The notes beneath the pieces are model-generated. The model was not told the origin of the DNA. It did no database searches and worked only from the letters and a program-made list of their open reading frames with translations. Below, piece by piece: positions 8,826 to 28,235 of a stretch of DNA of 64,000 nt (position 1 is its first letter; the number at the start of each line of letters is the position of its first letter). This stretch comes from Deltaproteobacteria bacterium (GTDB lineage: Bacteria; Myxococcota_A; UBA796; UBA9615). Where the stretch lies: NCBI GenBank assembly GCA_023954745.1, contig JAGSHC010000001.1, positions 14,356 through 78,355 of the forward strand. The letters run 5' to 3'. A program made the position numbers and the translations under genes.

Positions 8826-8958
8826 GAGGGCGACGATCATCCAGGGGCGATCGCGACGATCGCTCAGAGGCGACGGCGACGATCATCCAGAGGCGATCGC
8901 GACGATCGTCCAGAGGCGATCGCGACGATCGTTCAGAGGCGATCGCGACGATCCTCCG
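8826..8958. repeat. Tandem direct repeat, 5 full + 1 partial copies of a 23-bp unit (consensus GAGGCGATCGCGACGATCGTCCA) in the rpmH-dnaA intergenic region
   Basis: Read directly. Units are at 8826-8843 (partial), 8844-8866, 8867-8889, 8890-8912, 8913-8935 and 8936-8958. Each unit carries GATC twice and a TCGTCCA/TCATCCA core. The overlapping ORF 8821..9369(-) is a repeat-translation artefact. Confidence 0.85.
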
Positions 8959-9416
8959 GACCTGGCCCGCGCGATTCTCTCCGACCGAACTCGGGGGGGT
9001 CCCAGGCCGCAGATCCGTTGAATGCCGGGAGGCTTCAATGATTCTCTGCGTCGTCGACCCACCAGCTCCCTGCGCCCAACCCCAGCGCCGCCCGAGTCGG
9101 TTTCGTCGGATTGTCCCCGCTGCGTCGAGCGTTTCCGGTCGGATCTCAAAAACACGTACAAATGGCGCACGCAAGTACCTGCGGGAGACCACCAAAATGT
9201 CACCCGTCCAACAGGGGTCGATTCCCATCCCCGAGGTGGCATGACTGAGTTTGAACCGGAATCTGGCGCCAGTCCCGGCGTAGATTCCCAGGTTCGCAGT
9301 GCGCTGTTTTCGCCACCGAAATCCAGCTTCAGAGCCGTTGCGGGGGGTGGGGGCCAGGGGTAGCTTCAAATTCCTCGGCGGCCTCCGGGGTCAATCTTCA
9401 AGAAACGGGATGCAAT

Positions 9417-10760
9417 TTGATGCTTCGTTCCACCTGGGACGAGGTCTGTGCCCGCGTGCGTCAGGTCGAAGACCCCTTCTTCCATGACCCGTGGCTGGAC
9501 CGCTTGACGTTCGTCGACGCTGACGAGGACAGGGTGATCCTGGCCACGCCAAATCGGCTCTACGTGGAGTGGATTCAGGAGAACCTCGAGCCGAAGCTCC
9601 TCGAGCATGTTCAGGCCGTCACTGCGCGGCCGTACCTGATCGACTACGAGCTCGATGCATCCGTGGGACCGGGTCGGGGACCCGCCTCCGCGCGCGTCGA
9701 GACGCCCGAACCCATCACTCCGGCCTACGACTCCCACTTGAACATCCGCCACAGCTTCGAGAGCTTTGTGGTCGGCAGTGGAAACCAGTTCGCGACCGCG
9801 GCGTGTCAGAACGTGGCGGACGCACCGGCGCGGAACTACAACCCTCTGTTTCTCTTTGGCGGTGTCGGCCTCGGCAAGACCCACCTCCTCCACGCAATCG
9901 GCAACCGAATCCTCCAGGGGAATCCTTCGGCTCGGGTGCTCTACCTCTCTGCGAACGACTTCACCACCGAACTCATCAACTGCATCCGGTTCAAGCGGAT
10001 GGAGGAGTTCCGGGAGAAGTTCCGGCGGAACTGCGACGTCCTGCTGATGGACGACATCGAGTTCCTTGCGGGCAAGGAGCGGACCCAGGAGGAGTTCTTC
10101 CACACGTTCGAGGCCCTCCACGGCAGCGGGCGTCAGATCGTGGTCACTGCGGACCGCTATCCGAAGGACATTCAGGGGCTCGAGGAGCGTCTTCGCAGCC
10201 GCTTCGACTGGGGGCTGGTTGCGGACATCCAGCCACCGGACACCGAGACCAAGGTCGCCATCCTTCGCCGCAAGGCCGACGAAGAGGCCATCGAGATCCC
10301 CAACGATGTGGCCTTCTTCGTCGCGCGGCATGCCAAGGGCAACGTGCGAGAACTCGAGGGGACGCTCACCCGCCTCCTGGCCATGAGCAGCTTCCACGCC
10401 GCGCCCATCACCGTGGAGTTCGCTCGCAAGAGCCTCAACGGCTACCTGCAGGTGGAAGCCCGGCACACGACCGTCGACACCATCCAGAGCGGGGTCGCCC
10501 GCTTCTTTGGAGTGAAGGTGCAGGACCTCAAGGGTCCTCGACGCACCAAGCAGGTCGTCATGCCCCGTCAGATCGCCATGTACCTGGCGCGCAAGCACAC
10601 TGGACTGTCGCTCCCCGAGATTGGGAAGCGCTTTGGGGGGCGGGACCACACCACGGTCCTTCACGCCGTCCGCAAGGTGAGTCGAGTGCGTGGAGATGAC
10701 CCCAACTACCGCTCGCGTCTCGACGGCGTCACAAGGTCGCTGGGACTACCACTGGAGTAG
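9417..10760 (+). CDS. dnaA: Chromosomal replication initiator protein DnaA
   Basis: 447 aa (TTG-ATG start). It has the AAA+ Walker A GGVGLGKTHLLHAIGN, Walker B LLMDDIEFL, and the C-terminal DNA-binding domain (...QIAMYLARKHTGLSLPEIGKRFGGRDHTTVLHAVRKV). Confidence 0.96.
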   Translation: MMLRSTWDEVCARVRQVEDPFFHDPWLDRLTFVDADEDRVILATPNRLYVEWIQENLEPKLLEHVQAVTARPYLIDYELDASVGPGRGPASARVETPEPITPAYDSHLNIRHSFESFVVGSGNQFATAACQNVADAPARNYNPLFLFGGVGLGKTHLLHAIGNRILQGNPSARVLYLSANDFTTELINCIRFKRMEEFREKFRRNCDVLLMDDIEFLAGKERTQEEFFHTFEALHGSGRQIVVTADRYPKDIQGLEERLRSRFDWGLVADIQPPDTETKVAILRRKADEEAIEIPNDVAFFVARHAKGNVRELEGTLTRLLAMSSFHAAPITVEFARKSLNGYLQVEARHTTVDTIQSGVARFFGVKVQDLKGPRRTKQVVMPRQIAMYLARKHTGLSLPEIGKRFGGRDHTTVLHAVRKVSRVRGDDPNYRSRLDGVTRSLGLPLE

Positions 10761-10787
10761 AGATTCGAGTCGCCTCGAGGGAGGCGT

Positions 10788-10817
10788 CTGGACCCTTCTG
10801 GTCCGGCCAAATTTTTT
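10788..10817 (+). terminator. Candidate intrinsic terminator downstream of dnaA (stem CTGGACC/GGTCCGG, then CCAAATTTTTT)
   Basis: A 7-bp stem with a 5-nt loop is followed within 5 nt by a T6 run, ~30 bp after the dnaA stop. A second short hairpin CGCCTCgaggGAGGCG lies at 10771-10786. Confidence 0.3.
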
Positions 10818-10859
10818 GCCCGCGGAGGTCGTTGGTCGAAGGAACCAATGTCTCCGCAC

Positions 10860-11110
10860 TGCTTTATCCGCATCACCCTGTGTACAAGTCGGTGGACATG
10901 CTGTTGAAGGGTCCGTGGACCAATTGTTAACGTTCGCACCTGCGAGCATCGATCTCGGTTATCCACGGAGATACACACCGGTGAATCCACCGGTTCTTCA
11001 CAGCAAATTACTGAGTCGTTGCAAGGAGTTCGGGGCCGTTTCCACAGAAACGCAGGCCTACAATCAACAACAAGAGATCAAAGAAAATGAGATCTCTTAT
11101 GAAGTGCATT
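10860..11110. promoter_or_regulatory. Candidate oriC: DnaA-box cluster plus AT-rich DNA unwinding element in the dnaA-dnaN intergenic region
   Basis: Seven DnaA-box-like 9-mers were read directly: TTATCCGCA (10864-10872), TGTGTACAA (10879-10887), GGTGGACAT (10891-10899, revcomp ATGTCCACC), GTGGACCAA (10915-10923), TTATCCACG (10959-10967), TGAATCCAC (10982-10990) and GTTTCCACA (11038-11046). Each matches TTATCCACA/TTGTCCACA at 7-8 of 9 positions. They are followed by a low-GC stretch CAATCAACAACAAGAGATCAAAGAAAATGAGATCTCTTATGAAGTGCATT (11061-11110) immediately upstream of dnaN. Confidence 0.55.
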
Positions 11111-11144
11111 GAGCGGCACCGAGCCGCCTGGAGCGTGTGACCCC

Positions 11145-12269
11145 ATGGAATTCCGCATCGCCAAGGATGAGCTGATCCGAGCTCTCTCGAGGGTCCAGGG
11201 CATCGTCGAGAAGCGCTCGACGAACCCGATCATCGCGAACGTGCTCCTCGAGGCCGGAAGCGATGGCATGAAGGTCAGCGCGACCGACACCGAGGTGTCT
11301 CTCGTCGGCCACTACACCATCGAGTGCATTCAGCCGGGCCGTCTGACTCTCGGCGCACGTCAGCTCTACGAGATCGCTCGTCTGGTTCCTACGGACACCG
11401 TCTCGTTCCGACTTCCCGAGGGCTCGTTCCTCATGGAGATCAGCTCTGGGAAGGCGCAGTTCAAGGTCCTCGGTCTGGCTGCAGACGACTACCCACCCAT
11501 CGCCGAAGGCGGTGACGGTGAGGGGCTGCAGATCGAAGCAGCGGACCTCAAGGCGCTGGTCGACAAGACGCTCTTCTCCATCTCTGGGGACGACACCCGC
11601 ACGGGTCTCAACGGAGCTCATGTCGAGGTCACCGAGCTCGCCGGTGGTCGGACTCACCTGCGCTACGTCTCGACGGATGGTCACCGGCTGTCCCTCGCCG
11701 GTCGCAAGTTCTCTGGCAACTGGACCGCGGATCGCAGCGTGCTGCTTCCGAAGAAGGGCCTCGCCGAGCTCCGCAAGCTCGTCGATGTGGGCGATGGCCC
11801 GTGGAGCTTGCTGCTTTCGGACACCCAGGCGGTGTTCAGCCGCGGCTCGACTTCGTTCTCGATGCGCCTGCTCGAAGGGGACTTCCCCGACTACAAGCAG
11901 GTGGTTCCGGGCGGATGGCAGCGCCGCATCCTCGTGCAGCGCGCCCACGTCAGCCAGGCGCTCAAGCGGGTGTCCATTCTCGCCAGCGAGAAGTCGCATC
12001 CGGTGCGGTTCCACATCTCGGACGGCACCCTCATCATCACGGCGAAGCAGCCGGAGACGGGGGAAGCTCGGGAAGAGCTCGAGGCGCAGGTGGAAGGCCA
12101 GGACCTGGAGATTGGCTTCAACGCTCGATACTTCCTCGACGCTCTGAACGTGATGGACACCGACAGCATCGCCATTGAGATCGGTGACTCCCTGTCGCCC
12201 TGCCTCGTGCGTCCCGGCGAAGGCGAAGCCGACGAGCTGTTCGTTGTCATGCCCATGAGGCTCGAGTAG
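11145..12269 (+). CDS. dnaN: DNA polymerase III subunit beta (sliding clamp)
   Basis: An internal ATG gives MEFRIAKDELIRALSRVQGIVEKRSTNPIIANVLLEA..., the typical DnaN N-terminus (~374 aa). The gene order dnaA-dnaN-recF fits. Confidence 0.95.
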   Translation: MEFRIAKDELIRALSRVQGIVEKRSTNPIIANVLLEAGSDGMKVSATDTEVSLVGHYTIECIQPGRLTLGARQLYEIARLVPTDTVSFRLPEGSFLMEISSGKAQFKVLGLAADDYPPIAEGGDGEGLQIEAADLKALVDKTLFSISGDDTRTGLNGAHVEVTELAGGRTHLRYVSTDGHRLSLAGRKFSGNWTADRSVLLPKKGLAELRKLVDVGDGPWSLLLSDTQAVFSRGSTSFSMRLLEGDFPDYKQVVPGGWQRRILVQRAHVSQALKRVSILASEKSHPVRFHISDGTLIITAKQPETGEAREELEAQVEGQDLEIGFNARYFLDALNVMDTDSIAIEIGDSLSPCLVRPGEGEADELFVVMPMRLE

Positions 12270-12294
12270 GCATCGAGGGCCGACGGCCGCGTCG

Positions 12295-13461
12295 GTGAGG
12301 CTCACCTCCCTCTCCCTGCGTGACTTCCGCAATCTGGCGGTGGTCGATTTGGAGCTCCCTCCGGGGATCTCTGTGTTCTTCGGGGACAACGGGCAGGGGA
12401 AGACCAACCTCCTCGAAGCCGTCTACCTCCTCGCGACCCTGAAGAGCTTTCGGGGGGCGAAGAACAAGGAGCTGATTCGGTTCGAACACGTAGATGGGAA
12501 GGCCAAGAAGGCAGCGGACTGCGCGGTCGTCAAGGGTCGCCTGCTCACCGGCTCGCTCCCCCGCGACTACCAGGTCACTGTCGACGACAAAGGCAAGCGC
12601 ATCCGAGTCGACGGCAAGGACCCTCGCGGGCTCCCAAACTACTTTTCGGGCATCAAGGCCGTCTCGTTCGTGCCTTCCGACCTGCGGATGGTCGATGGGG
12701 GTCCAGAGCTTCGCCGGGAGTTCCTCGACCGCGCGGCGTTCACCCTCGACTCCACCTACCTCGGCGTCGCCAGGGAGTATCGGACCGCGCTGCGCCAGAA
12801 GAACGCTCTGCTTCGCGATGGAAAGAGGACAGGGCGCTCCCCAGATCCGGCGCTGCTGGGCGTGTGGAACGACCGACTGGTCTCTGCTGGGACGGAGGTC
12901 ATCGCCCGCCGGGTTGGCTTCTTGGAGCGTTTCGCGCCGACGTTTCGAGGCGTGCACGAGGGCATCACCGGCGCAGCGAAGGGCTATGCCGAGATTCGCT
13001 ACCGCGGCCCAGTGACTGCGTCGGCCCTCGAAGACGGGCGGGAGGGCATCGCTGCCGCCTTGAAGACCAAGGTCGACGACGCCTTCGCGGCTGAGGTGAA
13101 GCGCGGGTTTTCCACGGTGGGTCCGCATCGTGACGACTGGGAGCTGCGCGTCGGAGGGGAGCCCTTGCGAGCCTTCGGAAGCCAGGGCCAGGTGCGAAGC
13201 GCGGCGTTGGCGATGCGCATGGCGGTCATGGAGCTGACGAAGGAGGCGGCGGGGGTGTGTCCGCTCTTCCTGTTGGACGACGTCAGCTCGGAGCTCGACT
13301 CCCACCGCAATCGCCAGCTGATGGATCGACTCCGCGCGCTCGAGGCTCAGGTGCTTGTCACCACGACTTCGTTGTCGAACCTCCAGCTCACGCGCGCGCG
13401 CATGGCGGCGTTTCGCGTCCAGGGGGGTGTCGTGGAATCGCAGCCCTCAGAAGGCTCGTGA
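12295..13461 (+). CDS. recF: DNA replication and repair protein RecF
   Basis: 388 aa starting MRLTSLSLRDFRNLAVVDLELPPGISVFFGDNGQGKTNLLEAVYLL (Walker A) and carrying the C-terminal ABC-type signature/D-loop LFLLDDVSSELD. Confidence 0.95.
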   Translation: MRLTSLSLRDFRNLAVVDLELPPGISVFFGDNGQGKTNLLEAVYLLATLKSFRGAKNKELIRFEHVDGKAKKAADCAVVKGRLLTGSLPRDYQVTVDDKGKRIRVDGKDPRGLPNYFSGIKAVSFVPSDLRMVDGGPELRREFLDRAAFTLDSTYLGVAREYRTALRQKNALLRDGKRTGRSPDPALLGVWNDRLVSAGTEVIARRVGFLERFAPTFRGVHEGITGAAKGYAEIRYRGPVTASALEDGREGIAAALKTKVDDAFAAEVKRGFSTVGPHRDDWELRVGGEPLRAFGSQGQVRSAALAMRMAVMELTKEAAGVCPLFLLDDVSSELDSHRNRQLMDRLRALEAQVLVTTTSLSNLQLTRARMAAFRVQGGVVESQPSEGS

Positions 13462-13538
13462 CGGCGTTTTTGACTCCTCAGCGAGGGGGGGCTCGATCCG
13501 TGGCTTCAACGCTGGAAATAAGGGCTGAAAACCGCTAG

Positions 13539-16043
<2,505 letters not shown>

Positions 16044-16065
16044 TCGCAGAGACTCAGGAGCCCTC

Positions 16066-17073
16066 ATGGCCAACCCAGTAGCGAGCAAGATCATCGGCAC
16101 CGGGCACTACGTCCCGCCCACCGTGGTGACCAACGACGACCTCGCAAAGCGTTTCGACACGTCGGATGAGTGGATTCAGCAGCGCACCGGGATCAAAGAG
16201 CGTCGCTACAGCAAGCCCGAGGACACCACGGCGCACATGGGTGCCCTGGCAGCCCGCGCGGCCGTGGAAGACGCGGGCCTCGAGCTGACCGACATCGACT
16301 GCATCCTGCTCGGCACGCTCAGCCCCGACGTGACCTTTCCGGGCAGCTCGGTGTTCGTGCAGCGCGAGCTGGGCCTCCACGGCATCGCGTGCATGGACAT
16401 TCGGAACCAGTGCTCGGCCTACCTGTACATGGTGGCCACCGCGGATGCCTACGTCCGCGCTGGGCTGTTCAAGAACGTGCTCATCATTGGCTCCGAGGTG
16501 CACAGCACCGGAATCGACTTCTCGGACGAGGGTCGCGACGTGACGGTGCTCTTCGGGGACGGCGCGGCTGCGGCCGTGATTTCGGCGAGCGACGACCCCA
16601 AGGTGGGCGTCCTCCAGTCGTGCCTCCATGCGGACGGTGCTGGCGCCGAGTTGCTCTGGATCCAGAACCCGGGCAGCCGGGAGTTCCCGCACCGCGCGCC
16701 GGAGTCCATGTACGAAGACAAGTCGGTCTATCCCGGAATGGACGGACGCGCAGTCTTCAAGTGGGCCACCCGCAAGCTGCCCGAGGTGATCCGCGAGGCC
16801 CTCGATAAGTCTGGCTATGAGCTGGATGACATCGATGTGCTCGTGCCCCATCAGGCGAACATGCGCATCAACCAGATGGTGGCGAAACAGCTGGGGTTCC
16901 CCCAGGAAAAGGTCGTCCACAACATCCAAAAGTATGGAAACACGACGGCGGCGTCCGTAGGAATTGCTCTCGATGAGGCCCGGAAGGACGGTCGCATCAA
17001 GGAAGGTTCCCTGGTATGTCTCGCAGCCTTCGGCTCTGGATTCACCTGGGGTGCGAGCATTCTGAGGTTCTGA
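16066..17073 (+). CDS. fabH: 3-oxoacyl-ACP synthase III (FabH, KAS III)
   Basis: 335 aa with the catalytic Cys in SAYLYMVATAD..., the VPHQANMRI His motif and GNTTAASVGIAL (Asn) at the C-terminus. It lies 22 bp after gyrB. Confidence 0.9.
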   Translation: MANPVASKIIGTGHYVPPTVVTNDDLAKRFDTSDEWIQQRTGIKERRYSKPEDTTAHMGALAARAAVEDAGLELTDIDCILLGTLSPDVTFPGSSVFVQRELGLHGIACMDIRNQCSAYLYMVATADAYVRAGLFKNVLIIGSEVHSTGIDFSDEGRDVTVLFGDGAAAAVISASDDPKVGVLQSCLHADGAGAELLWIQNPGSREFPHRAPESMYEDKSVYPGMDGRAVFKWATRKLPEVIREALDKSGYELDDIDVLVPHQANMRINQMVAKQLGFPQEKVVHNIQKYGNTTAASVGIALDEARKDGRIKEGSLVCLAAFGSGFTWGASILRF

Positions 17074-17076
17074 ACC

Positions 17077-18009
17077 CTGTCTGACGGACCCGCCAGCTCA
17101 ATCAAGTTCGGCAACAAGCGGGTCTTCTTCCTCTCGGGGAAGGGTGGAACCGGCAAGACGGCGATCTCCGTGGGTCTCGCGCGTGCTCTCGCACGTCGTG
17201 GCAAGCGAGTCCTGATCGTCGAGATCGACGCCCCTCGCCCGAACCTGCCCAACTACTTCGGTGGCCAGATCGACGCCCAGCCTCGCAAGCTGGGCCGGCG
17301 CATCGACGGCTGCAACATCGACTTCTTCTCGGCCCTGCGCTCCTACGTGGAGTCCGTGGTGCCGGTGAAGCGAGTTGTGGGACTCATCCTCAAGAACCGG
17401 GTGGTGAAGATCTTCCTCACCGCCACGCCCGGCGCCCGCGAGCTCGTGCTGATGTCACGCCTGTGGGAGTTCAGCTGGGATCCGCGCTGGGACCACATCA
17501 TCGTCGACCTGCCTGCGTCCGGGCACGCCATGGCGTTGATGCGCTGCCCGACACTGGCCAAGCGCACGTTCGCCCGTGGCCCGCTGCGCAAGCGCGCTGA
17601 CGAGATCATCGACCGCTTCGTCGACCCGTCGGTGGCGGGGCTCTACTTCTGCGCTCTTCCGGGTGAGATGCCCATCAACGAGACCCTGGAGACAAGGCAG
17701 CAGCTGGTTGATCTGGGCATGCCCCAGGTGGGCGGGGTCTTCCTCAACCAGTACCCCGACGAGAGCTTCTCGGAAGAGGAGCAGGGCCTGCTCGACCAGG
17801 TGGCGGCCATGGACGGCGCGCCCCGCTCAGTGGGGGCAGCGGTGGAGTCCGCCATCGAGACGCGCCGGAATCAGGTGGTCGCCGAAGAAGGCGTGGGCAA
17901 GCTGCTCGGCGCCTTCGGTGAGGGCTACGTCGGCCGCTTGCCGGTGCTCCCCGGAACCCACAGTCAGGTGGCGGATGCCATCTCGCTCATCATCACGGAG
18001 TGGCTGTGA
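17077..18009 (+). CDS. ArsA/Get3-family P-loop ATPase (first of an adjacent pair); start codon unresolved
   Basis: The frame is open from the fabH stop and reads ...SIKFGNKRVFFLSGKGGTGKTAISVGLARALARRGKRVLIVEIDAP with the ArsA-like signature DLPASGHAMALM. There is no ATG/GTG/TTG upstream of the P-loop; only CTG (17077) and ATC (17101) are available. The track start at 17170 (GTG) would delete the Walker A. Confidence 0.65.
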   Translation: MSDGPASSIKFGNKRVFFLSGKGGTGKTAISVGLARALARRGKRVLIVEIDAPRPNLPNYFGGQIDAQPRKLGRRIDGCNIDFFSALRSYVESVVPVKRVVGLILKNRVVKIFLTATPGARELVLMSRLWEFSWDPRWDHIIVDLPASGHAMALMRCPTLAKRTFARGPLRKRADEIIDRFVDPSVAGLYFCALPGEMPINETLETRQQLVDLGMPQVGGVFLNQYPDESFSEEEQGLLDQVAAMDGAPRSVGAAVESAIETRRNQVVAEEGVGKLLGAFGEGYVGRLPVLPGTHSQVADAISLIITEWL

Positions 18010-19223
18010 GCCCCCCCATGACCACCCAGGGCGCTCGCCAACGAGAGGCTCAGGAGGCGCTGCTCGACGCCGTGCGCGACCGCAAGCTGGTGGTGTGCGT
18101 CGGAAGCGGAGGAGTGGGCAAGACCACCACTGCGGCGTCCATTGGCATTCGAGCGGCGATCGACGGCAAGCGAGTCATCGTCGTGACCATCGACCCCGCG
18201 AAGCGCCTCGCAAACTCGCTGGGGCTGGAGGCCCTGGGCAACGACCAGCGGCAGATCGACCCCGCGCGGTTCGCCGAGCATGGGGTGGAGCCCAAGGGCA
18301 CGTTGCACGCGATGATGCTCGACACGCGAGCGACCTTCGACGAGGTCATCAGCAAGGTGTCTCCTGACGACGAGACGCGCGACCGGGTGCTCAGCAACCG
18401 CATCTACAAGCACATCTCCGACACGCTCTCCGCCAGTCACGACTACATGGCGTCCGAGAAGCTCTACGACCTGTACACCTCGGGCAAGTACGACCTCATC
18501 GTGCTCGACACGCCCCCCATGAAGAACGCCATCGACTTTCTCGAGGCGGGTGGGCAGCTGGCGCGATTCCTCGACGACTCAATCATCAGCTGGTTCCTCA
18601 CGCCGCACCAGGGTGGCCGTCGCGTGGGGGCCTCGCTGATCTCCGGGACCGGCACCATCGTGTACCGCCTCCTGGGACGGGTGTTCGGCAACGACTTCCT
18701 CGACGAAATCGCGGAGTTCTTCCTCGCCACGAAGGACCTGCTTGCCGGCTTCCGGGAGCGCGCTGAGTTTGTGAGCCAGCTGCTCCACGACAAGAACAAG
18801 ACTCGCTTCTTCGTGGTGTGTACGCCCCGCGCGGTGTCCATGGATGAGGCCCGCTACTTCCACCGGCAGTTGGTGGAGCGCGACATGCCCGGTGGGCTGT
18901 TCATCGTGAACCAGGCGGGTCGCTACGCCGGGTTTTCGCCCGCGCCGGACGGCCAGCCAGGGCAGTATCTCGGCCCCGTCGACCGCGACTGGATGGCCGA
19001 TGCGCTCGAGCGTCCGGTCGGGGGGATGCAGTCGTTCCTGAGCCGATTGGACGCACACTTCGAGCGCAGCGTGGCCCTGGACGACGACGACGCACGCAGC
19101 ATCGAGGGCCTCCGGGCCTTCGCTGGCTCATCGGCGAGGGTGTGTGTCGTTCCCCGTCTCACCACGGATGTCTACGACCTGGACGGGTTGCTCAAGATCG
19201 GTGGTTACGTCTTCGGCGTGTAG
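18000..19223 (+). CDS. ArsA/Get3-family P-loop ATPase (second of the pair)
   Basis: 407 aa with VVCVGSGGVGKTTTAASIGIRAAIDGKRVIVVTIDPAKRL (Walker A and the ArsA-type DPA motif). It overlaps the upstream paralog by 10 nt. A GTG at 18000 or the ATG at 18018 are possible starts. Confidence 0.8.
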   Translation: MAVSPPMTTQGARQREAQEALLDAVRDRKLVVCVGSGGVGKTTTAASIGIRAAIDGKRVIVVTIDPAKRLANSLGLEALGNDQRQIDPARFAEHGVEPKGTLHAMMLDTRATFDEVISKVSPDDETRDRVLSNRIYKHISDTLSASHDYMASEKLYDLYTSGKYDLIVLDTPPMKNAIDFLEAGGQLARFLDDSIISWFLTPHQGGRRVGASLISGTGTIVYRLLGRVFGNDFLDEIAEFFLATKDLLAGFRERAEFVSQLLHDKNKTRFFVVCTPRAVSMDEARYFHRQLVERDMPGGLFIVNQAGRYAGFSPAPDGQPGQYLGPVDRDWMADALERPVGGMQSFLSRLDAHFERSVALDDDDARSIEGLRAFAGSSARVCVVPRLTTDVYDLDGLLKIGGYVFGV

Positions 19224-19281
19224 AGAGTCGTCCTCGGCGTGTTGAGAGTCACCTCTCGCGTGGATGCCCCTCGACGGGCTC

Positions 19282-20526
19282 CTACCACTTCCACCACTTC
19301 TTGCTCTCCCCCGAGTCCTCGCCAGGTCCCAGCTCGTGCGGGCCGTCGCCCTCACGTCGGGGTTCGGGGACTGCCACCGGCTCGACCGCGCTCATGCTGA
19401 TGGCGTCGATGGAGGTGTCGCCATCGTCCTCGGCGACTGTGCCGCGGCTGAGGATGACCGTCTCGGACACCTGAGGGCGGCCCGCTGGCTCCAGACTCGC
19501 ATCCGATGCCTGCTCACCGGTGCTCTCCAGATCGCGATCCCGCGCCGTCCTCGTCTCGACCCATTGACGCAGCGCTCCCCGGCCGTGACTGGGCCGGTGC
19601 AGCTCCCAAAGGCCCTCGAGCCGGTCGAACACCTCGCCGCCCTCCTGGGGTCGCTTGTCGGGGTACTGAGCGAGGAGCGAGCTCATCAGGGAGACCAGCT
19701 TCTCCATGGGTCGCCCCTTGTCCTCCAATTCGTACCTACGGGCCAACGCCCAGCGGAGCTCCGGCTCGCGCGGTTCGAAGCGGGCTTTCAGAGCAGCGTC
19801 GAGCGGAGAGACACCGTTGCCCTCCTCCACGCGAACGAATGGCGCGCCGGTGAGGAACTCAAAGGCGATGGCGCCGAGCGCATAGAGGTCGGACCGCCCA
19901 TCGAGAGGCTCGCCGTGGAGCTGTTCGGGGCTCATGTAGAGCGGGGTGCCCTTGGTGATGCCGCCGTCGGTTTCGTTGCCCAACCGGCGCTTCGCCCAGG
20001 CGATGCCGAAGTCGAGGATCTTCACCCGTCCCTCCACTGTCACCACGATGTTCGCGGGCTTCAGGTCGCGATGGACGAGCCCCACGTGGTTGCCGGCGCT
20101 GTCGACGAGGCGGTGGGCGAAGTGCAGCCCATCGGCGATTTCGCTGATGGCCAGGAGTGGGGCCGAGATGGGCAGCGGGTCGAGGCGGGTCCGGTCGTGA
20201 CGCAGGAGCCGCCGGAGCGTCTGCCCCCGCACCAACTCCATCACCAATATCCAGGTGTCCCCCAGAGCGTCGTCGCTGATGGCTCGAAAGTGGCGGGCCT
20301 GGACCACGTTGGGATGCTGCACCCGGCTGAGGATGCGCGCCTCGTTGGCCATGCCAGCGACGCTGGCGGGGTCCTGAGCGGCCTTGACCGCGTCGAGGAC
20401 CTTGACCGCGACCTCCTGCGAGAAGCCCAGGTCGCCGCGGATGATGGCGCGATACACGGACCCGAAGGAGCCGGCTCCGAGGAGCTCGACGAATTCGTAG
20501 CCTTCGATGGTGCGAGGAAGCCGCAT
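19282..20526 (-). CDS. Hanks-type serine/threonine protein kinase
   Basis: 414 aa with LGAGSFGSVYRA (Gly-loop), AVKVL (catalytic Lys), HRDLKPANIV (catalytic loop), DFG and SPEQ. It has a disordered acidic C-terminal region ending in KKWWKW. Confidence 0.88.
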   Translation of the reverse strand: MRLPRTIEGYEFVELLGAGSFGSVYRAIIRGDLGFSQEVAVKVLDAVKAAQDPASVAGMANEARILSRVQHPNVVQARHFRAISDDALGDTWILVMELVRGQTLRRLLRHDRTRLDPLPISAPLLAISEIADGLHFAHRLVDSAGNHVGLVHRDLKPANIVVTVEGRVKILDFGIAWAKRRLGNETDGGITKGTPLYMSPEQLHGEPLDGRSDLYALGAIAFEFLTGAPFVRVEEGNGVSPLDAALKARFEPREPELRWALARRYELEDKGRPMEKLVSLMSSLLAQYPDKRPQEGGEVFDRLEGLWELHRPSHGRGALRQWVETRTARDRDLESTGEQASDASLEPAGRPQVSETVILSRGTVAEDDGDTSIDAISMSAVEPVAVPEPRREGDGPHELGPGEDSGESKKWWKW

Positions 20527-20618
20527 GCCGAAGATCTAGCGCGAGATTCGCCGCTCGGGTTTGCTGTCGGAGATTGCGCGGGGAAGTCCCATGGACGTCG
20601 CCCCGGCCGATCTCTCAG

Positions 20619-21416
20619 CTACCAGGTGACCGTGGCCTCGTCGCAGCTGAGCCACTCCACGGTGACGCGGGTGGTCTCGACGGGGTCGAAGCCCTCGCGG
20701 TACTGGGCGCGCCAGTCGAGGACGCCGCCGATGGGGCCCTCGCAGCCGTCGTCGGTGACGAGGCCTTCGATGGTGCCGTCGAGCCGGAACTGAACAGAGG
20801 TGGCAGAGGGGGATCCGCCGAGGGTCACGCCGGCGAGCCAGGCCATGTCGAAGCTGCCCTCGAGGGTGGTGTCGGTCCAATCGAGCTGGTGAGTCCAGTC
20901 GAGGGTGGTGCCGATCCCGAAGCCCACGACGTTGGCTCCGAAGTCGAGGGCGAGCTCGGAGCTGCTGCTGTTCTCGCTCCACTTGTATTCGCCGTCGGCG
21001 GAGAAACCGATGCTGACGCTGGGGACCTCGACGCCGAGCACGCAGTCGTCGTAGATGACTCCGTCGTCGAGCTCGGTGAGGCACTCGGGCCACTCGTCAC
21101 GCGCGCCCGAGCCGGCGAAGGTCACCTGACGGAGAAGCTCGAGCTCTTCCTGATGAACGATGGCGGCCGAGTTGGACCCGTCGGCTCGGTCCTTGTTGGA
21201 CAGGTACCGCAGCGAGGGCTGAACCGCGGAGATGGCCCCGAGCGAGAACTGCCCGAAGTCCGTCGAGGGTGCGTTGCCCGTCTGGAGGGTGAAGTCGACC
21301 TCTCCCAGCTGCTCGAGCTCGCCCGCATCGGCGTCGTGGGTGGTCCGGCAGCCGCTGGCGGCGAGGGTCAGCGCGAGCAGAAGAAGCATGGATCGCATGG
21401 GCTGAGAATAGGTCAT
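20619..21416 (-). CDS. Hypothetical lipoprotein
   Basis: 265 aa with signal peptide and lipobox MRSMLLLLALTLAASGC. It is Asp/Gly/Thr-rich and I recognise no domain. An alternative start is the ATG at 21398. Confidence 0.5.
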   Translation of the reverse strand: MTYSQPMRSMLLLLALTLAASGCRTTHDADAGELEQLGEVDFTLQTGNAPSTDFGQFSLGAISAVQPSLRYLSNKDRADGSNSAAIVHQEELELLRQVTFAGSGARDEWPECLTELDDGVIYDDCVLGVEVPSVSIGFSADGEYKWSENSSSSELALDFGANVVGFGIGTTLDWTHQLDWTDTTLEGSFDMAWLAGVTLGGSPSATSVQFRLDGTIEGLVTDDGCEGPIGGVLDWRAQYREGFDPVETTRVTVEWLSCDEATVTW

Positions 21417-21638
21417 TTCGAGGCACCTCCTACCAGGTCAAACACCGCCCCAGGCGGGTCGGCACCGAGCATAGATCTGCCCGACCCGTACGCCCACGGG
21501 ATCGGTCTGCGAGCACCCCCTGGATCAACCCCCAGGATCGACCAAAAAAACACAGTATTTCCAACAACTTACACTGCTTGCCAACCGGATCCCGACCCTG
21601 TAGCATCCGGCGTCGCCCGAACCCCCCGGAATCGCTGA

Positions 21639-24245
21639 ATGACCTCGACAGATTTCGCTTACTCCGTCATCGGTACAAACATCGAAGACGAGATGCGGTC
21701 CAGCTACCTGGACTACTCCATGTCGGTAATCGTGGGACGCGCTCTGCCGTCCGCGCGAGACGGGCTCAAGCCCGTGCACCGACGCATCCTCTACGCGATG
21801 TTCCGCGAGGGGTTGCTGAGCAATCGCCGCTACAGCAAGTGCGCTGGTGTCGTCGGTGAAGTGCTCAAGAAGTACCACCCCCACGGCGACTCGGCGGTCT
21901 ATGACGCCCTGGTGCGCATGGCGCAGCCGTGGAACCTGAGGTATCCGCTCGTCGATGGTCAGGGGAACTTCGGCTCCGTCGATGGCGACTCGGCCGCTGC
22001 GTATCGGTACACCGAGTGCCGGATGACGCGCCTCGCTGAGGACCTGCTCACCGACATCGACAAGGACACGGTCGACTTCACGCCGAACTTCGACGGAACG
22101 GTGCAAGAGCCCCTCGTGCTCCCCACCCGGGTCCCGAACCTGCTGATCAATGGTGCTTCGGGCATCGCCGTCGGCATGGCGACGAACATCGCTCCGCACA
22201 ATCTGCGGGAGATCGTCGACGCGACCATCGCGGTCATCGAGAACCCGGAGATCACGGCGGATGAGCTCCTGGAGATCGTTCCGGGGCCCGACTTCCCCAC
22301 CGGTGGCCTGATCTACGGACACGGTCCGTGCATTGAGGCATCGAAGACCGGGCGTGGCCGCGTGATCATGCGGGGCGTCGCGGAGGTCGAGAAGGACGAC
22401 CGCGGTGACGACAAGGCGATCATCATCACCGAGATTCCCTACCAGGTGAACAAGTCCCGTCTCGTCGAGACCATCGCCAACCTGGTGCGGCACAAGAAGG
22501 TCGACGGCATTCGCGACATCCGCGACGAGTCCGACCGCACCGGCATGCGGGTGGTGGTCGAGCTCAAGCGCGACGCCATCGGGCAGGTCGTCCTGAACCT
22601 GCTCTACAAGCACACGGCGCTTCAGAGCACGTTTGGGGTCATCAACCTCGCGCTCGTCGACCGACGCCCGCAGGTTTTGTCGCTCAAGGAGCTGCTCAGC
22701 GAGTTCGTGGCCCACCGCAAGGAGGTCACGATTCGTCGCTGCCGGTTCGAGCTGGCCCAGGCCGAGGCTCGCGCCCACGTCCTCGAGGGGTACCTCAAGG
22801 CCCTGGACCACATCGACGAGATCATCCGGATCATCCGGGCCTCGGCGAACACCGAGGAGGCGCGGAACTCCCTCATCAGTCGCTTCGAGTTCACCCACGT
22901 CCAGGCCCAGGCCATCCTCGACATGCGCCTCGCCCGGCTCACCGCTCTCGAGCGCGAGAAGCTGGAGCAGGAACTTGCGGATGTGAACCAGAAGATCGAG
23001 CGCCTGCGCAGCATTCTCAGCAGCGAGGCCCTGATCTTCGAAGTGATCAAGGGCGAACTCGGCGAGATTCGGGAGCGCTACGGCGACGACCGACGCACCA
23101 AGATCATCGCCGCGTCGGCTGACCTCTCCATCGAGGACCTCATCCCCGACGAGGAGGTGGCGGTCACGCTCTCCAGCCTCGGCTACGTCAAGCGCACTCC
23201 TCTTCGTGAGTACGAGGCTCAGCGCCGCGGTGGCAAGGGCAAGCGCGGCATGAGCACGCGCGACGAGGACTTCGTGCGCGACCTGTTCGTGGCGTCGACC
23301 CACGACAGGCTCATGGTCTTCACGCGCCTGGGGCAGGTCTATCTGCTGCCTGTGTACAACGTTCCGGAGGGCGGTCGCGCAGCGCGCGGACGTCCGATCA
23401 TCAACCTCGTCCCGATGAACGGCGAGGATGAGGTCGCAGGGGTGTTGGCGATTCGCGAGTTCGATCAGCGCTCGGTGGCCATGGTCACCCGGGGCGGCAA
23501 GATCAAGCGCACCAACCTCGAGCGCTACAAGAACATCCGTTCCAACGGGATCATCGCGTGCGGCCTCGAAGAGGGCGACGAGGTCCTCACGATTGGTCTC
23601 ATCGACAAGGAGGGCGCCTCGCTGCTCCTCTCCACATCGGACGGCAAGTCCATCCACTTCCTGGCCGACCAGGCTCGGGAGATGGGCCGCGGAGCCCGCG
23701 GGGTGCGAGGCATCACGCTGGTGGCCGACGACCGGCTCGTGGGCATGGAGGTCGTGGACCCGGGAATCCCGGAGCCCACCATCGACGAGTCCCGTCGTCT
23801 CCAGGAGGGGATGGCGCTGCTGACCCTCACGGAGAACGGCTTCGGCAAGCTCACGCCTCTCTCGGAGTACCGGAAGCAGAACCGTGGCGGCATCGGCCTC
23901 ATCGACATCAAGACGATGGGACGCAACGGCCCGGTCGTGGGTTCTGCTCTCGTGTCATCCAACGACGAGGTCATGATCATCACCGACGGCGGCAAGCTGA
24001 TTCGCACCCGCGTGGGCGAGGTCAGCGTCATCGGCCGGAACACCCAGGGTGTGATGCTGATCCGTCTCGACGACAACGAGAAGGTGGTTGCCTTCCAGCG
24101 GGTCGGCGAGACCCCGGAGTCGGATGACGCCGAGGCCGCCGGTGAAGCAGAGACTGTGGACGGCGAGGCTGAGGCGACTGCCGAGGCTCCCGCTGCCGAG
24201 GCTTCCGCCGCGGACGAGACTGCCGGCGACGGGGACGACTCGTAG
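21639..24245 (+). CDS. gyrA: DNA gyrase subunit A
   Basis: 868 aa. It has the N-terminal catalytic region (...[26 protein letters not shown]...), the active-site Tyr region [12 protein letters not shown] and the beta-pinwheel C-terminal domain plus an acidic tail. A low-GC promoter-like stretch lies upstream (21540-21638). Confidence 0.97.
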
Positions 24246-25080: not shown

Positions 25081-26544
25081 CTACCGCGCGCCGTGGACGG
25101 CGAGTACGTGGCAGATGCAGGACGTGAGCTTCTTCGCGTAGGGCACGTGCAGGAACTCGTTGGGTCCGTGGGCGTTGCTGTTGGGGCCGAGGACTCCGGT
25201 CACCACGAACTGGGCGTCGGGGAACTTGTCGTTGAGCATCGCCATGAACGGGATGGTGCCGCCCTCGCCCATGTGCAGGCACGGCTTGCCGTAGAAGGTC
25301 TCGCTCGCAGCGTCCAGGGTCTCCTCCAGCCAGCCCGCCAGTGGCGGCGCGTTCCAGCCCGTGGCGGCGTCCCCGAAGTCTGCGCGCACGTCCGCGTCGT
25401 AGGGCACGTCCGTCGTGAAGAGCTCGGTGAGCACCCCCGCTGCGTCGCCGGCGCTCACGGTGGGAGGCAGGCGAAGCGAGAGCTTCAGCCTCGTGTGGGG
25501 CCGCAGGACGCTGCCCGCAGAGCTCGTCGGAGGCACGCCGTCGATGCCCGTGATGGAGAGCGCGGGGCGCCAGGTTCGGTTCAGGACGCACTCCGCCGGG
25601 GTGGTGTCGGTGGGCTGCATGCCCCCGGCCCAGGGAAACCGCTTGTAGACGTCCTCACCCAGCGAGCTGCTGGACCGCTCGGCCTGGCGGCGCCGGTCCT
25701 CGGGAATGTCGGCCCAGAGCGACTCGGGCAGCACGCGCCCCGTCTCAGGGTCCTCGAGGCGGGACAGCAACTGACGCGCCACCCGGAAGCTGCTCGGCAC
25801 GACTCCGCTGGCGTCGCCGCTGTGCACACCTTCGCGCAGCACGTGCACGTCCAGGGTTCCGCCGATGAGCCCGCGCAGCGACGTGGTGCTCCACATCTGC
25901 TCGTAGTTGCCCGCGCCGCTGTCGAGGCAGACGACGAGGTCAGGAGTGCCGATCAAGTCCTTGTAGTGGTCCACGTACGCGGGGAGGTCGGGGGAGCCGG
26001 ACTCTTCACTGAACTCAATCATGAGCACCACGCGCGACCGGGCCACGCCCTGCTCACCGAGGGCGAGGAGCGAGCACACCGACGCGAAGAGCGCGTAGCC
26101 ATCGTCGGCACCGCCGCGGCCGTACAGCTTCCCGTCCTCGTACTTCGGGATCCAGGGCCCCAGGTCCTCGCGCCACCCGGTCATCTCGGGCTGCTTGTCG
26201 AGGTGGCCGTACATGAGGATGGTGCCTTCCGCCCCGCCGGTGGCGGGGACATCGACGAGGATCATCGGCGTGCGCCCAGGCAGGCGACCCACCTTGACCT
26301 CCATGCCGGGCACCGGGTGCTCCTCGAGCCACGCCAGCGCCAGCTGCAGCGCCTGCTCCATGAAGCCGTTCGCCTCCCAGTCCGCGTCAAAGGCCGGGGA
26401 CTTGTTGGGGATGGTGATGTACTCGGTGATCGTGGGCACGATGTGCTCGTCCCAGAAGGCGTTCACGAAGTCGGCGGTGGTCTTTGAGTCGATCAAGGCT
26501 GCCTCTCGGTGGGGGGCGGGTTTGCCGCGGAGGGCGCAGAGCAT
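25081..26544 (-). CDS. M20-family metallopeptidase (dipeptidase-like)
   Basis: 487 aa with the M20 metal-ligand motifs (...LMYGHLDKQP..., ...GRGGADDGYA..., EFSEESGSPDL, and a C-terminal His). The exact start is uncertain. Confidence 0.8.
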   Translation of the reverse strand: MLCALRGKPAPHREAALIDSKTTADFVNAFWDEHIVPTITEYITIPNKSPAFDADWEANGFMEQALQLALAWLEEHPVPGMEVKVGRLPGRTPMILVDVPATGGAEGTILMYGHLDKQPEMTGWREDLGPWIPKYEDGKLYGRGGADDGYALFASVCSLLALGEQGVARSRVVLMIEFSEESGSPDLPAYVDHYKDLIGTPDLVVCLDSGAGNYEQMWSTTSLRGLIGGTLDVHVLREGVHSGDASGVVPSSFRVARQLLSRLEDPETGRVLPESLWADIPEDRRRQAERSSSSLGEDVYKRFPWAGGMQPTDTTPAECVLNRTWRPALSITGIDGVPPTSSAGSVLRPHTRLKLSLRLPPTVSAGDAAGVLTELFTTDVPYDADVRADFGDAATGWNAPPLAGWLEETLDAASETFYGKPCLHMGEGGTIPFMAMLNDKFPDAQFVVTGVLGPNSNAHGPNEFLHVPYAKKLTSCICHVLAVHGAR

Positions 26545-26670: not shown

Positions 26671-27186
26671 GTGGCTCGACACCGGGCGCCTCGCCTCGCC
26701 GACCTGCTCGCTGCTCTGGAGCACGACGAGCACGCGGTCACCGGCGCGATCTGCGAGGCCTATGGCGCCGGTGACGTCCGACGCGCGCGTCGCGGCCTTC
26801 TCGCCCACCACCGCAAGGAGCCGTTCCCGCCTCGCAAGGAACGCATTGGACTCGCGCTGCGGGACCTTCGGCTGTGGGTCGAGCCGGCCGAGGACCCAGC
26901 AGCCACAAGCATGAGCGGCATCGGAAGCGGCTGGTTCGGGCGTCATCAGCCTCGCCCCGACGGCTCCTCCATCGCCACCCTCTGGGCCACCGTGCTCGGG
27001 CTCCCCTTCTATCCCCTCGGCGCCTACCTCGTGAGCCGCGCCGGCCGCTCCGTCACCGTGCATGGACGCGTTCCCCTGCCGTCCAGGGCGCGTCTGGCGC
27101 GCAGCGCGGCCTGGGTCATCGGGTCGGTTGCCCTGCTGTCCCTGGTGCCCGGCGTGCTCCGCCAGTTGGGCGTCGTCGCCCGGTGA
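26671..27186 (+). CDS. Hypothetical small membrane protein (two C-terminal TM helices)
   Basis: The frame of track ORF 26509..27186 was used. A GTG at 26671 or the ATG at 26911 (MSGIGSGWFG...) are possible starts. Predicted TM segments are IATLWATVLGLPFYPLGAYLV and AAWVIGSVALLSLVPGVL. Its stop overlaps the next gene's start (GTGA). Confidence 0.35.
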   Translation: MARHRAPRLADLLAALEHDEHAVTGAICEAYGAGDVRRARRGLLAHHRKEPFPPRKERIGLALRDLRLWVEPAEDPAATSMSGIGSGWFGRHQPRPDGSSIATLWATVLGLPFYPLGAYLVSRAGRSVTVHGRVPLPSRARLARSAAWVIGSVALLSLVPGVLRQLGVVAR

Positions 27187-28235
27187 GACCCTCGTCGCCC
27201 GAGGTCCTTCGCTTCGCGGTCTGCACCTTCGACCGTGTCTTCGACACCGACCCGAAGCAGGAGACTCTCACCCTTCCCCAGCTGGTCACGGCGCTTCTGC
27301 GCTTCGAGTTGAAGCCCGAGCTGCTGGTGCGCGTCGACCGCACCCTGGGGCAGATCGAGCGGGCTTGGGAGGCCTGGGAGGCTGGCTCGTATCGCTCGGG
27401 AAAGCAGTACGGCGTTCTGCGCAAGGCGGCGGATACGGCGAAGCGGGACGGGAAGGACGCCAACGAGGCCGCCCGGGTCGCCTACGAGCACCTCAAGACC
27501 GACGCCCGTGGCGCGCCGAAGCGGGACCTTCGTCTGTGGGCGCCCACGCTGTATCGCCCGGGGGGGCGTCGCACCCGTGACGACGTCGTGCATCTCTCCT
27601 GCCTGGTGCTCGACTACGACAAGGGTCTGGCCTTCGACGAAGCCCAGGCTCCGTGGCTGGACTGGTTTCACATCGCGCACAGCACGTGGTCGCACACGCC
27701 CGAGAAGCCGAAGTTCAGGATCATCCTGCCGCTGGCGGGCCCCGTCGCTGCGAGCGAGTGGCGCACGGTGTGGGACTGGGCCTTCGGGATCACGGGAGAC
27801 TGGATCGACCACGCCATGAAGGGCATCGCGGTGACCTTTGCGTTGCCCAGCTCACCGAGTCACGACGCAGTGAAGATCGCCGTGCTCAACGATCAGGCTC
27901 CCCTTCTCGATCCGGTCGCCGAGGGCATCGTGCGGCGCTTCGCGGACATGCCGCCCATCGTCTCGGAGATCGATCGCCCGGCATCGCACTTCAACGGAGG
28001 AGTGCAAGGACACACCTACCAGGAATTGGCGCCCATCCAGCCCATCGAGGAGCCGCCGGACACCTTGGATGTGAGCGGCGAGTGGGAGGTGGCGAGAGAG
28101 CCCGACCCTCTCACTGCGGCCCGCGAAGCCGTCCGCCCGGAGCCTCCTGCGCCTGCGCCTTCGGAGCCGCGGGAGGAGGAGCCCGCCTGGGACGAACGCA
28201 GCGATGAGTGGGAGACCCTCTTCGACGACCTGTAG
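27184..28235 (+). CDS. Hypothetical protein with AEP (archaeo-eukaryotic primase) Prim-Pol-like motifs and an acidic C-terminal tail
   Basis: GTG start (VRPSSPEVLRFAVC...). Motif I-like LVLDYD (hhhDhD), motif II-like HIAHSTWSH (sxH) ~30 aa later, then KFRIILPLAG and GDWIDH (motif III-like Asp) ~34 aa later. This order and spacing match pRN1/BT4734-type Prim-Pol domains. The C-terminus is EPREEEPAWDERSDEWETLFDDL. Confidence 0.5.

Follow-up and report, generated by a model that had tools for sequence, protein, structure and literature searches.

A stand-alone chromosomal protein of the archaeo-eukaryotic primase superfamily, most likely derived from primases of integrative elements

The gene pair

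The window analysed here is a stretch of 64,000 nucleotides from a Deltaproteobacteria bacterium (assembly GCA_023954745.1, contig JAGSHC010000001.1, positions 14,356 to 78,355 of the forward strand). Its + strand carries a pair of overlapping open reading frames (ORFs), a small one named ORF-A (26671-27186, 171 aa) and a gene for a protein belonging to the superfamily of archaeo-eukaryotic primases (AEP) (27183-28235, 350 aa). The 350-aa protein is a new, unnamed stand-alone variant within the known AEP superfamily. Most likely it goes back to integrative-element primases and now serves the cell as an enzyme. The features of the pair are as follows:

26671-27186, + strand: ORF-A, 171 aa, GTG start, TGA stop at 27184-27186
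27183-28235, + strand: AEP-superfamily protein, 350 aa, GTG start, TAG stop, no transmembrane segment
27183-27186, + strand: GTGA overlap, four shared bases in which the AEP gene starts (GTG) and ORF-A stops (TGA)

The NCBI gene calls are identical (100%) to both proteins (P0121, 171 aa, and P0001, 350 aa), which are annotated as hypothetical. An earlier interpretation made from the letters of the window, here called the sequence-only reading, had described both ORFs and their GTGA overlap. These are real and match the gene calls, except that the AEP gene starts at 27183, one base lower than the 27184 given. The closest relatives have a gap of 10-13 nt between ORF-A and the AEP gene, compared with the 4-nt overlap in the window.

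Fold and sequence matches of the AEP protein

An alignment of 120 homologs is the basis of the AlphaFold model and of the residue counts given below. The model of the 350-aa protein has a pLDDT (predicted local distance difference test score) of 89.5 and a pTM (predicted template modelling score) of 0.79, and is ordered from residue 9 to about residue 285. It comprises the AEP catalytic fold, with an N-terminal alpha/beta module and an RRM-like core, and the top Foldseek matches in the PDB and in BFVD are nearly all AEP domains. In the PDB, the top match is 6zp9, the AEP domain of cyanophage S-2L PrimPol (E 1.4e-4, probability 1.00), followed by the AEP domains of MPXV E5 and vaccinia D5, LigD-Pol, HHV1 primase, ASFV PrimPol, CAPP, and human PrimPol. 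Among the predicted viral structures of BFVD there are 57 matches at E<=1e-3, the best with E 1.3e-13 over about 250 columns, and all lie at the N-termini of phage primase-helicases.

Sequence searches point in the same direction. Residues 118-244 match the PHROGs family phrog_9765 'DNA primase' (E 1.8e-10) and other primase/helicase families. BLASTP aligns residues 101-192 with a primase-helicase from Ruegeria phage DSS3-P1 at 32% identity (E 5e-11). Pfam has no family for the protein at E<=1 and NCBIfam has nothing, and neither the protein alone nor the family profile retrieved anything but coiled-coil or PPR noise from the PDB sequences. The AEP/Prim-Pol assignment proposed from the letters is thus borne out by the model, Foldseek, and PHROGs. 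Its narrower form, a pRN1-type Prim-Pol of PF09250, has no Pfam match at E<=1 behind it, and the nearest proteins are instead the All3500-like and phage VapE-type primase-helicase AEPs. The protein is very probably an AEP-fold enzyme with an intact metal site. Two parts of the model lie upstream of the catalytic motifs:

27207-27314, + strand: N-terminal beta/alpha module, residues 9-44 (RFAVCTFDRVFDTDPKQETLTLPQLV...), with model strands 10-16, 25-30, and 40-43
27315-27527, + strand: three-helix insertion, residues 45-115, with helices 45-66, 74-88, and 93-110, pLDDT >95

Within the first of these, F11, F16, R18, V19, F20, and P24 are at least 90% conserved, and the module also occurs in Zn-ribbon relatives (P0190, P0202, P0179). 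The three-helix insertion is found in the chromosomal group, whereas phage relatives and the short relatives with a Zn ribbon lack it.

Catalytic motifs and conserved residues

The catalytic core contains the following motif regions:

27519-27572, + strand: residues 113-130, KRDLRLWAPTLYRPGGRR, with K113, P121, and R130 invariant and Y124 a candidate steric gate
27603-27620, + strand: motif I (LVLDYD, residues 141-146), with D144 and D146, located where strand 135-145 ends, as predicted metal ligands
27678-27719, + strand: motif-II region, residues 166-179, HSTWSHTPEKPKFR
27795-27848, + strand: motif-III region, residues 205-222, GDWIDHAMKGIAVTFALP, with D209 as the predicted third acidic ligand and A220 and P222 invariant
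27873-27875, + strand: K231, 22 aa after D209, candidate Arg/Lys of motif IV

The peptides LVLDYD (141-146), HSTWSH (166-171), KFRIILPL (177-184), and GDWIDH (205-210) occur in the order described by the sequence-only reading, and the acidic triad that it recognised is conserved. D144 and D146 are each present in 120/120 homologs, and D209 in 119, with one Glu. The numbering and spacing need correction: the motif-I aspartates are D144/D146 and not D183/D185, and the measured distances are 25 aa from D146 to H171 and 38 aa from H171 to D209. The pattern is more than chance, as the region around the motifs matches primases significantly by both profile and fold.

In the motif-II region, T168, S170, and R179 are found in all 120 homologs, H166 in 119, and H171 in 107, the rest having Tyr or Phe. 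The block HTTxSHxPEKPRxR is also present in gp81 of Ruegeria phage DSS3-P1. The residues K113, P121, R130, T168, S170, R179, P183, W199, A220, and P222 are invariant. Y124, located 20 aa before motif I, is Tyr in 115 homologs and Phe in five, and its position makes it a candidate steric-gate residue. Position 231 is occupied by Arg in 105 homologs, Lys in six, and His in seven. This Lys/Arg may be the motif IV residue, motif IV being the term for a conserved Arg after motif III (PMC5862659).

The key residues of S-2L PrimPol are Y63, E85, D87, T112, K115, H118, D146, and R157, and Y63 lies 22 aa before E85 (PMC8065100). A manual alignment of the two proteins, anchored on secondary structure, suggests the following correspondences (window protein first):

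Y124: probable counterpart of Y63
D144/D146: probable counterparts of E85/D87
T168: probable counterpart of T112
H171: probable counterpart of K115
K177-F-R179: probable counterparts of S116-I-H118
D209: probable counterpart of D146

The D209/D146 register agrees with hhalign, which pairs these residues when the family profile is compared with the single S-2L sequence; this comparison is weak (E 0.25) and was used for the register only. According to the anchored alignment, the position of the motif-II His is probably taken by the invariant R179, and the earlier assignment of HSTWSH as the 'sxH' motif II is probably wrong. Arg or Lys at the motif-II His site is known in the DR0530-like family (PMC5862659).

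Family, distribution, and genomic context

A word-index search gives 148 homologs of the 350-aa protein, and an exhaustive profile search gives 5497 representative proteins at E<=1e-3, of which 254 are at E<=1e-30. The full-length relatives are all unnamed and come from metagenome-assembled genomes (MAGs) of Myxococcota (Sandaracinaceae, Polyangia, Nannocystaceae) and Acidobacteriota. Phage and plasmid collections contain no full-length homolog, only partial matches to phage 'VapE / DNA helicase' proteins. The distant relatives match the catalytic core only (profile positions ~110-265) and are of two kinds. The first comprises proteins of ~280-360 aa with a C-terminal Zn ribbon, and the second comprises longer proteins (650-1000 aa) that also contain an ATPase domain of the VapE-like, DUF927, AAA_25, or DUF3987 type. 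The PrimQH and All3500 families of mobile-element PrimPol-PV1 proteins have the same architecture as these distant relatives (PMC5862659).

Genomic context was compared by clustering the ORFs of 61 loci all-against-all. The set consists of 51 loci of the window subfamily (50 fetched and the window itself) and 10 Zn-ribbon loci (L054-L063). A large serine recombinase is present at six of the 10 Zn-ribbon loci, and a DUF927 helicase with a Cch-type helix-turn-helix lies immediately downstream of the AEP gene at five. Together they make up the kind of module with which integrative elements typically replicate and integrate. L062 provides an example, with the recombinase, AEP-Zn-ribbon, and DUF927 helicase module at 3039-4646 (-), 8001-8669 (+), and 8833-11250 (+). 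The serine recombinase and the DUF927/Cch helicase occur at 0/51 loci of the window subfamily, whose flanks were not scanned exhaustively for integrases. The window branch therefore looks domesticated.

Kazlauskas et al. (2018, PMC5862659) found AEPs of the PrimPol-PV1 group almost solely in mobile elements. The window protein is probably an unnamed chromosomal offshoot domesticated from such a mobile-element primase. Two intermediates, L054 and L062, are chromosomal, keep the Zn ribbon and the Arg after motif III, and already have the helical insertion. On the simplest reading, the helicase was lost first and the Zn ribbon afterwards, and the three-helix insertion (45-115) and new C-termini were gained.

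No neighbour family occurs in more than 12 of the 61 loci, or of the 51 window-subfamily loci, and the clustering shows nothing beyond local synteny. Where Pfam annotates them, the neighbours are housekeeping genes, namely gyrA, M20 peptidase, and GT2 in the window, and CTP synthase, Mrp antiporter, and CysRS elsewhere. The four closest genomes have a common housekeeping synteny. In the window, the upstream gene order is dnaA (9417-10760), dnaN, recF, and gyrB (9.4-16 kb), then gyrA (21639-24245). A TPR protein and a divergent M20 peptidase (25081-26544, - strand) lie between gyrA and the pair, and a GT2 glycosyltransferase, a carbamoyltransferase, and PhoD follow downstream. This agrees with the earlier description of a pair set between peptidase and glycan-modification genes near oriC. 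The stand-alone protein in a non-mobile chromosomal setting, also described there, stands as well: the window contains no tRNA, GC content is 0.66-0.72 throughout the region without a shift, and no integrase or helicase is found near the AEP gene. Rfam gives no family at threshold for the locus, and scans of the locus show no promoter-like or terminator-like sites.

The origin-proximal set (dnaA, dnaN, recF, gyrB, gyrA; window 9417-24245) lies 3-18 kb upstream of the pair. Proximity to oriC was considered as a meaningful feature and not kept; it seems incidental, since other family members are not near the dnaA-gyrA set and adjoin pyrG, mrp genes, or cysS. An antisense ORF lies opposite the AEP gene (window 27024-27812, - strand). 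Such long antisense ORFs are present at 47 of the 61 loci and are high-GC shadow ORFs, not genes.

C-terminal tail and exchangeable modules

The C-terminus is the variable part of the family. In the window protein it takes this form:

28038-28232, + strand: acidic tail, residues 286-350, ending WDERSDEWETLFDDL, disordered (pLDDT 50-72), with a helix at 338-349

The tail contains 21 acidic and five basic residues, in line with the long acidic tail noted earlier, and WDERSDEWETLFDDL is the C-terminal end of the whole window clade. About 60 of the 120 relatives end in an acidic stretch with a W...F peptide of the form xFDLF, FEDLF, FDDPF, FPWD/S, or LFDDL. A literature search gave nothing usable on the QFDLF peptide. 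About 22 of the 120 end in a SHOCT domain, and 32 end in a minimal HAD domain with the four HAD motifs (DFDGV...S.R...K...DDR). Two MAGs have two paralogues each with differing C-termini, SHOCT only in one and SHOCT with HAD in the other: L033 and L045 in Sandaracinaceae SGMAG-31, and L041 and L051 in Ust_23. L051 looks frameshifted after motif II.

In Pfam, the HAD domain comes closest to HAD_SAK_2, the family for HAD domains in 'Swiss Army Knife' RNA-repair proteins; 8/10 sequences match it, with a best E of 1.4e-4, below the gathering score. The model of a HAD-type member has a pLDDT of 81.9. Its fold neighbours are Pnkp1 of the Pnkp1/Rnl/Hen1 RNA-repair complex, the phosphatase of T4 PNK, 5'(3')-deoxyribonucleotidases, and TIM50/SCP-type phosphatases (E 0.01-0.1, probability 0.9-0.99).

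One protein of 1059 aa, P0144 at locus L066, consists of a full-length AEP ortholog preceded in the same chain by an aldo-keto reductase, an AAA_33 kinase, and a PNK3P-type HAD. The HAD and P0144 fusions point to work on nucleic-acid ends or nucleotides. At L066 (117-3296 and 3425-6165), the fusion is followed by two ORFs, one of them with the acidic-aromatic ending DDFDFGMM, and then by an ATP-dependent DNA ligase. The ligase, two genes downstream of P0144, belongs to the ATP-dependent DNA ligase families PF01068 and PF04679, and the locus looks like a repair operon.

Proposed mechanism and role

The best overall explanation, with a probability of roughly 0.55, is that the window protein is a chromosomal AEP derived from integrative-element primases and re-used in nucleic-acid repair. 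In such an enzyme, D144 and D146 of motif I and D209 of motif III would hold two catalytic metal ions, and T168, S170, H171, R179, and K/R231 would hold the incoming nucleotide. Its ancestors would be AEP and Zn-ribbon primases of integrative mobile elements, from which the Zn ribbon and the helicase partner would have been lost and to which the three-helix insertion would have been added. The C-terminus would be exchangeable, consisting of the acidic-aromatic peptide in the window, or of a SHOCT domain or a small HAD phosphatase. The predicted activity is that of a template-dependent repair or damage-tolerance polymerase, working in primer extension, gap filling, or end processing rather than as a replicative primase. 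The acidic-aromatic tail may recruit the polymerase to where it works through contact with a partner protein, and in paralogues a 3'-phosphatase-type HAD domain may clean the ends. ORF-A would be a membrane protein co-transcribed in a narrow clade only, and not an obligate partner. The fold, the conserved triad, the spread of the family, the domain fusions, and the difference in genomic setting are observations; enzymatic activity, substrate, repair role, and tail function are predictions built on them.

The AEP domain of S-2L PrimPol keeps its polymerase activity on its own, without the PriCT-2 and helicase parts (PMC8065100), so that an AEP which has lost such modules could still be a polymerase. 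Because the Zn ribbon has been lost and the isolated S-2L domain is active, an extension or gap-filling polymerase is likelier than a replicative primase. The scheme is similar to that of mycobacterial Prim-PolC/LigC and LigD (PMC5663958), a lineage to which the window protein does not belong. The repair-polymerase role itself is put forward tentatively, at somewhat less than even odds. More speculative is the fuller proposal that a captured mobile-element primase, fixed in the chromosomes of Myxococcota and Acidobacteriota, has become a new repair-polymerase family independent of LigD and Prim-PolC. This family would have lost the priming modules (Zn ribbon and helicase), with the helical insert possibly substituting for them. 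Its tail peptide would dock on a replisome or repair hub, and in paralogues a HAD phosphatase within the same chain would clean 3' ends.

Several observations weigh against a repair enzyme of this descent. A mixed alignment of 78 distant, mostly Zn-ribbon relatives and seven members of the window subfamily shows, in 81% of its sequences, an Arg located 8 residues past the Asp of motif III (D..CKD..RhYF.P). This Arg is found in 0/120 sequences of the window subfamily, the window protein having V217, and nucleotide binding may therefore be altered. H166 and H171 fit no 'sxH' pattern, and the assignment of the canonical motif-II His is uncertain. The HAD domain occurs in only about a quarter of the members and not in the window protein, and all HAD subfamily assignments are below curated thresholds. 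The association with a ligase and a PNKP-like fusion is confined to the single locus L066, the other 60 of the 61 loci being without ligase or Ku, and no repair gene is a conserved neighbour. Every family member comes from MAGs, and the integrase scan of the flanks was not exhaustive.

Alternative explanations and ORF-A

A defence or conflict effector is an unlikely alternative. It would be a stand-alone or loosely linked anti-phage enzyme that makes aberrant primers or signals, with SHOCT and HAD as conflict modules. Variable neighbourhoods, paralogues in some MAGs, and descent from mobile-element proteins are consistent with it, as is the resemblance of the HAD domain to HAD_SAK_2, which belongs to RNA-repair proteins reported from conflict settings. 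Links to CRISPR or Argonaute systems exist for other AEPs (PMC8211822, PMC11724360). However, PADLOC-DB 2.0 gives no match for the window AEP, ORF-A, the HAD-type member, or the SHOCT-type member. There is also no conserved partner gene; the AEP gene lies among housekeeping genes, and the gene order around it is stable across the closest clade.

Equally unlikely is an RNA-directed AEP, which would extend or repair RNA ends (such as those of damaged tRNA or rRNA) together with the HAD 3'-phosphatase, and would not act on DNA. This would fit the best Pfam match of the fused HAD, an RNA-repair 'Swiss Army Knife' family, the presence of Pnkp1 of Pnkp1/Rnl/Hen1 among its fold neighbours, and the polynucleotide-kinase-like AAA_33 and PNK3P domains of P0144. 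In contrast, Y124 is conserved where a steric gate against ribonucleotides would be expected, the ligase beside P0144 is an ATP-dependent DNA ligase (PF01068, PF04679), and every HAD match is below threshold.

The gene could also be the remnant of a replication primase from a decayed integrated element, either selected only within a cryptic element or itself decaying. The nearest relatives by fold and sequence are indeed phage and mobile-element primase-helicases, and PrimPol-PV1 AEPs are nearly confined to such elements (PMC5862659). This origin as a present state is improbable: no integrase, helicase, tRNA, or GC anomaly is found near the gene, and four genomes have its housekeeping synteny in common. 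The catalytic residues are invariant across 120 sequences at ~40% identity. The C-terminal modules are new and conserved, and argue for a maintained cellular function.

Slightly less probable again is a membrane-tethered primase, in which ORF-A would anchor the AEP at the membrane as one half of an obligate pair. ORF-A is a genuine gene with a narrow distribution, and Pfam and NCBIfam scans give no match for it. Its product has a helical N-terminal part, an LRDLRLWxxP motif, a GxGS...DG...T.W...P..P..YLV segment, and a C-terminal hydrophobic helix. Two segments bear on its membrane association:

26971-27033, + strand: ORF-A residues 101-121 (IATLWATVLGLPFYPLGAYLV), Pro-rich and moderately hydrophobic, Kyte-Doolittle <1.4, conserved in the ORF-A family
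27103-27165, + strand: ORF-A residues 145-165, likely transmembrane helix, Kyte-Doolittle maximum 1.9 over 19 residues

The 'two-TM' description given to this protein holds for one clear hydrophobic segment (145-165), and the second (101-121) is weaker. In an alignment of the small family, T103, W105, P112, P115, Y119, L120, and V121 of the weaker segment are invariant.

Several features favour a tether. The two genes are on the same strand with a 4-nt overlap, and ORF-A lies directly upstream of the AEP gene in the four closest genomes (window, L001, L064, L005). A (L/K)RDLRLW peptide is conserved in both protein families, and the long AEP tail could dock on a partner. ORF-A and the AEP gene are likely co-transcribed in this closest clade. 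However, at the remaining 57 of the 61 AEP loci compared, no ORF-A homolog occurs in the flanks, taken up to 8 kb on each side. Only five ORF-A relatives are found in 5.8 billion proteins, compared with hundreds of AEPs. The distant relative P0255 lies at a locus without an AEP gene, where a two-component system follows directly. The shared motif is short (20 columns, hhalign probability 25%). Since ORF-A is confined to the closest AEP clade, membrane tethering and an obligate complex are not supported, contrary to the 'membrane-tethered' enzyme once proposed.

Two further observations concern ORF-A. In L005 (5727-7820), its homolog makes up only the N-terminal ~150 aa of a larger product of 697 aa, whose long C-terminal region is helical (TPR-like); this reading frame stops 10 nt before the AEP start. 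In the window, RDLRLW is encoded by a 20-nt direct repeat with 19/20 identical positions (26859-26878 in ORF-A and 27521-27540 in the AEP gene). The codons differ in other genomes, and the nucleotide identity is specific to the window genome. The idea that ORF-A is a partial duplicate of the AEP insert was rejected, as hhalign aligns only 20 columns (E 8e-4, probability 25%).

Least probable of all is a catalytically silent AEP fold that serves only in DNA binding or as a scaffold. It would fit the loss of the Zn ribbon, of the helicase, and of the Arg seen after motif III in relatives. Against it, the three acidic and several neighbouring polar residues are invariant, which is not expected once catalysis is lost.

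Significance

Apart from the LigD/Prim-PolC lineage, AEPs of bacteria are regarded as nearly restricted to mobile elements (PMC5862659). If domesticated, the present family would be a clear case of a mobile-element AEP turned into a cellular gene. Its intermediates are visible: a mobile form with Zn ribbon and helicase, a chromosomal form with insert and Zn ribbon, and the window form with insert and a tail, SHOCT, or HAD. If the protein is a true repair polymerase, it represents a new enzyme family for genome maintenance in large-genome soil and marine bacteria. The series also offers a natural experiment on what an AEP requires for priming as opposed to extending. There is an annotation gap as well, since the AEP domain of the whole clade, including that of S-2L PrimPol, is invisible to Pfam and NCBIfam. 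Of the sequence-only reading as a whole, the AEP/Prim-Pol-like domain in a non-mobile chromosomal setting stands, the pRN1 comparison and the membrane tether are not supported, and the sxH assignment is probably wrong.

Comparison with known systems

S-2L PrimPol (6ZP9) is the best match among solved structures (E 1.4e-4 and 8e-5), and was placed by its authors in the All3500-like family of the PrimPol-PV1 supergroup (Czernecki et al. 2021, PMC8065100; PMC5862659). Along the chain, each protein has a Tyr ahead of motif I, then two paired acidic residues, a T...basic...(H/R) block, the Asp of motif III, and a strand containing a proline, and Pfam recognises the AEP part of neither. In contrast, S-2L PrimPol has 737 aa and acts as a replicase of its phage, with a PriCT-2 and a VapE helicase domain. 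Both domains are missing from the window protein, which has a 70-aa helical insertion and an acidic tail, and is chromosomal. Identity in the structural alignment is 12-13%, and R157 of S-2L has no clear counterpart in the window protein. For S-2L PrimPol (L068 20825-23035) and DSS3-P1 gp81 (L067 2348-5149), both primase-polymerases known from experiment or structure, Pfam detects the VapE-like helicase domain only.

The phage and mobile-element primase-helicases (VapE/VirE, DUF927, DUF3987, RepA-type ATPase; phrog_9765, phrog_256; for example DSS3-P1 gp81) have in common with the window protein the core K..W.P..(Y/F)..G.R...hhhLDYD...H(T/S)TxSHxPEKP+xRhhhPL. They differ in being 650-1000 aa long, with a Zn ribbon or PriCT and a helicase, and in residing on phages or integrative elements, whereas the window protein has the AEP domain only and lies among housekeeping genes. 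The mobile location and the usual fusion to PriCT/ZnBD and a helicase that characterise PrimPol-PV1/All3500-like proteins are seen in the Zn-ribbon relatives and not in the window protein. The module of L054-L063 is reminiscent of staphylococcal SCC-type elements, but is found in Myxococcota and other MAGs. pRN1 ORF904 (PF09250) belongs to the same superfamily and has its acidic motifs in the same order as the window protein. It differs in that there is no PF09250 match at E<=1, and the pRN1-type structures are outside the top 50 PDB fold matches.

The acidic C-terminal tails of T7 gp4, gp2.5, and bacterial SSB, and the beta-clamp-binding peptides QL[SD]LF, dock on partners. The likeness to these consists of a disordered acidic tail with an aromatic or hydrophobic end (EFDLF, FDDLF, FDDPF). 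The window protein differs from SSB and T7-type tails in ending LFDDL, without a terminal Phe, and many relatives end FPWD/S.

Mycobacterial Prim-PolC and the LigD polymerase domain provide a functional analogy, being chromosomal bacterial AEPs without Zn finger or helicase (PMC5663958, PMC7442782). They belong to a different AEP clade, with LigD-Pol at E 0.04 in Foldseek and no Pfam LigD/Prim-Pol match, and no Ku or ligase is found near the window AEP gene. Prim-PolC and LigD fill short gaps or process ends together with ATP-dependent ligases and end-cleaning phosphoesterases (PMC5663958, PMC7442782). The P0144 locus, with its kinase-phosphatase-AEP fusion and ligase, mirrors this logic.

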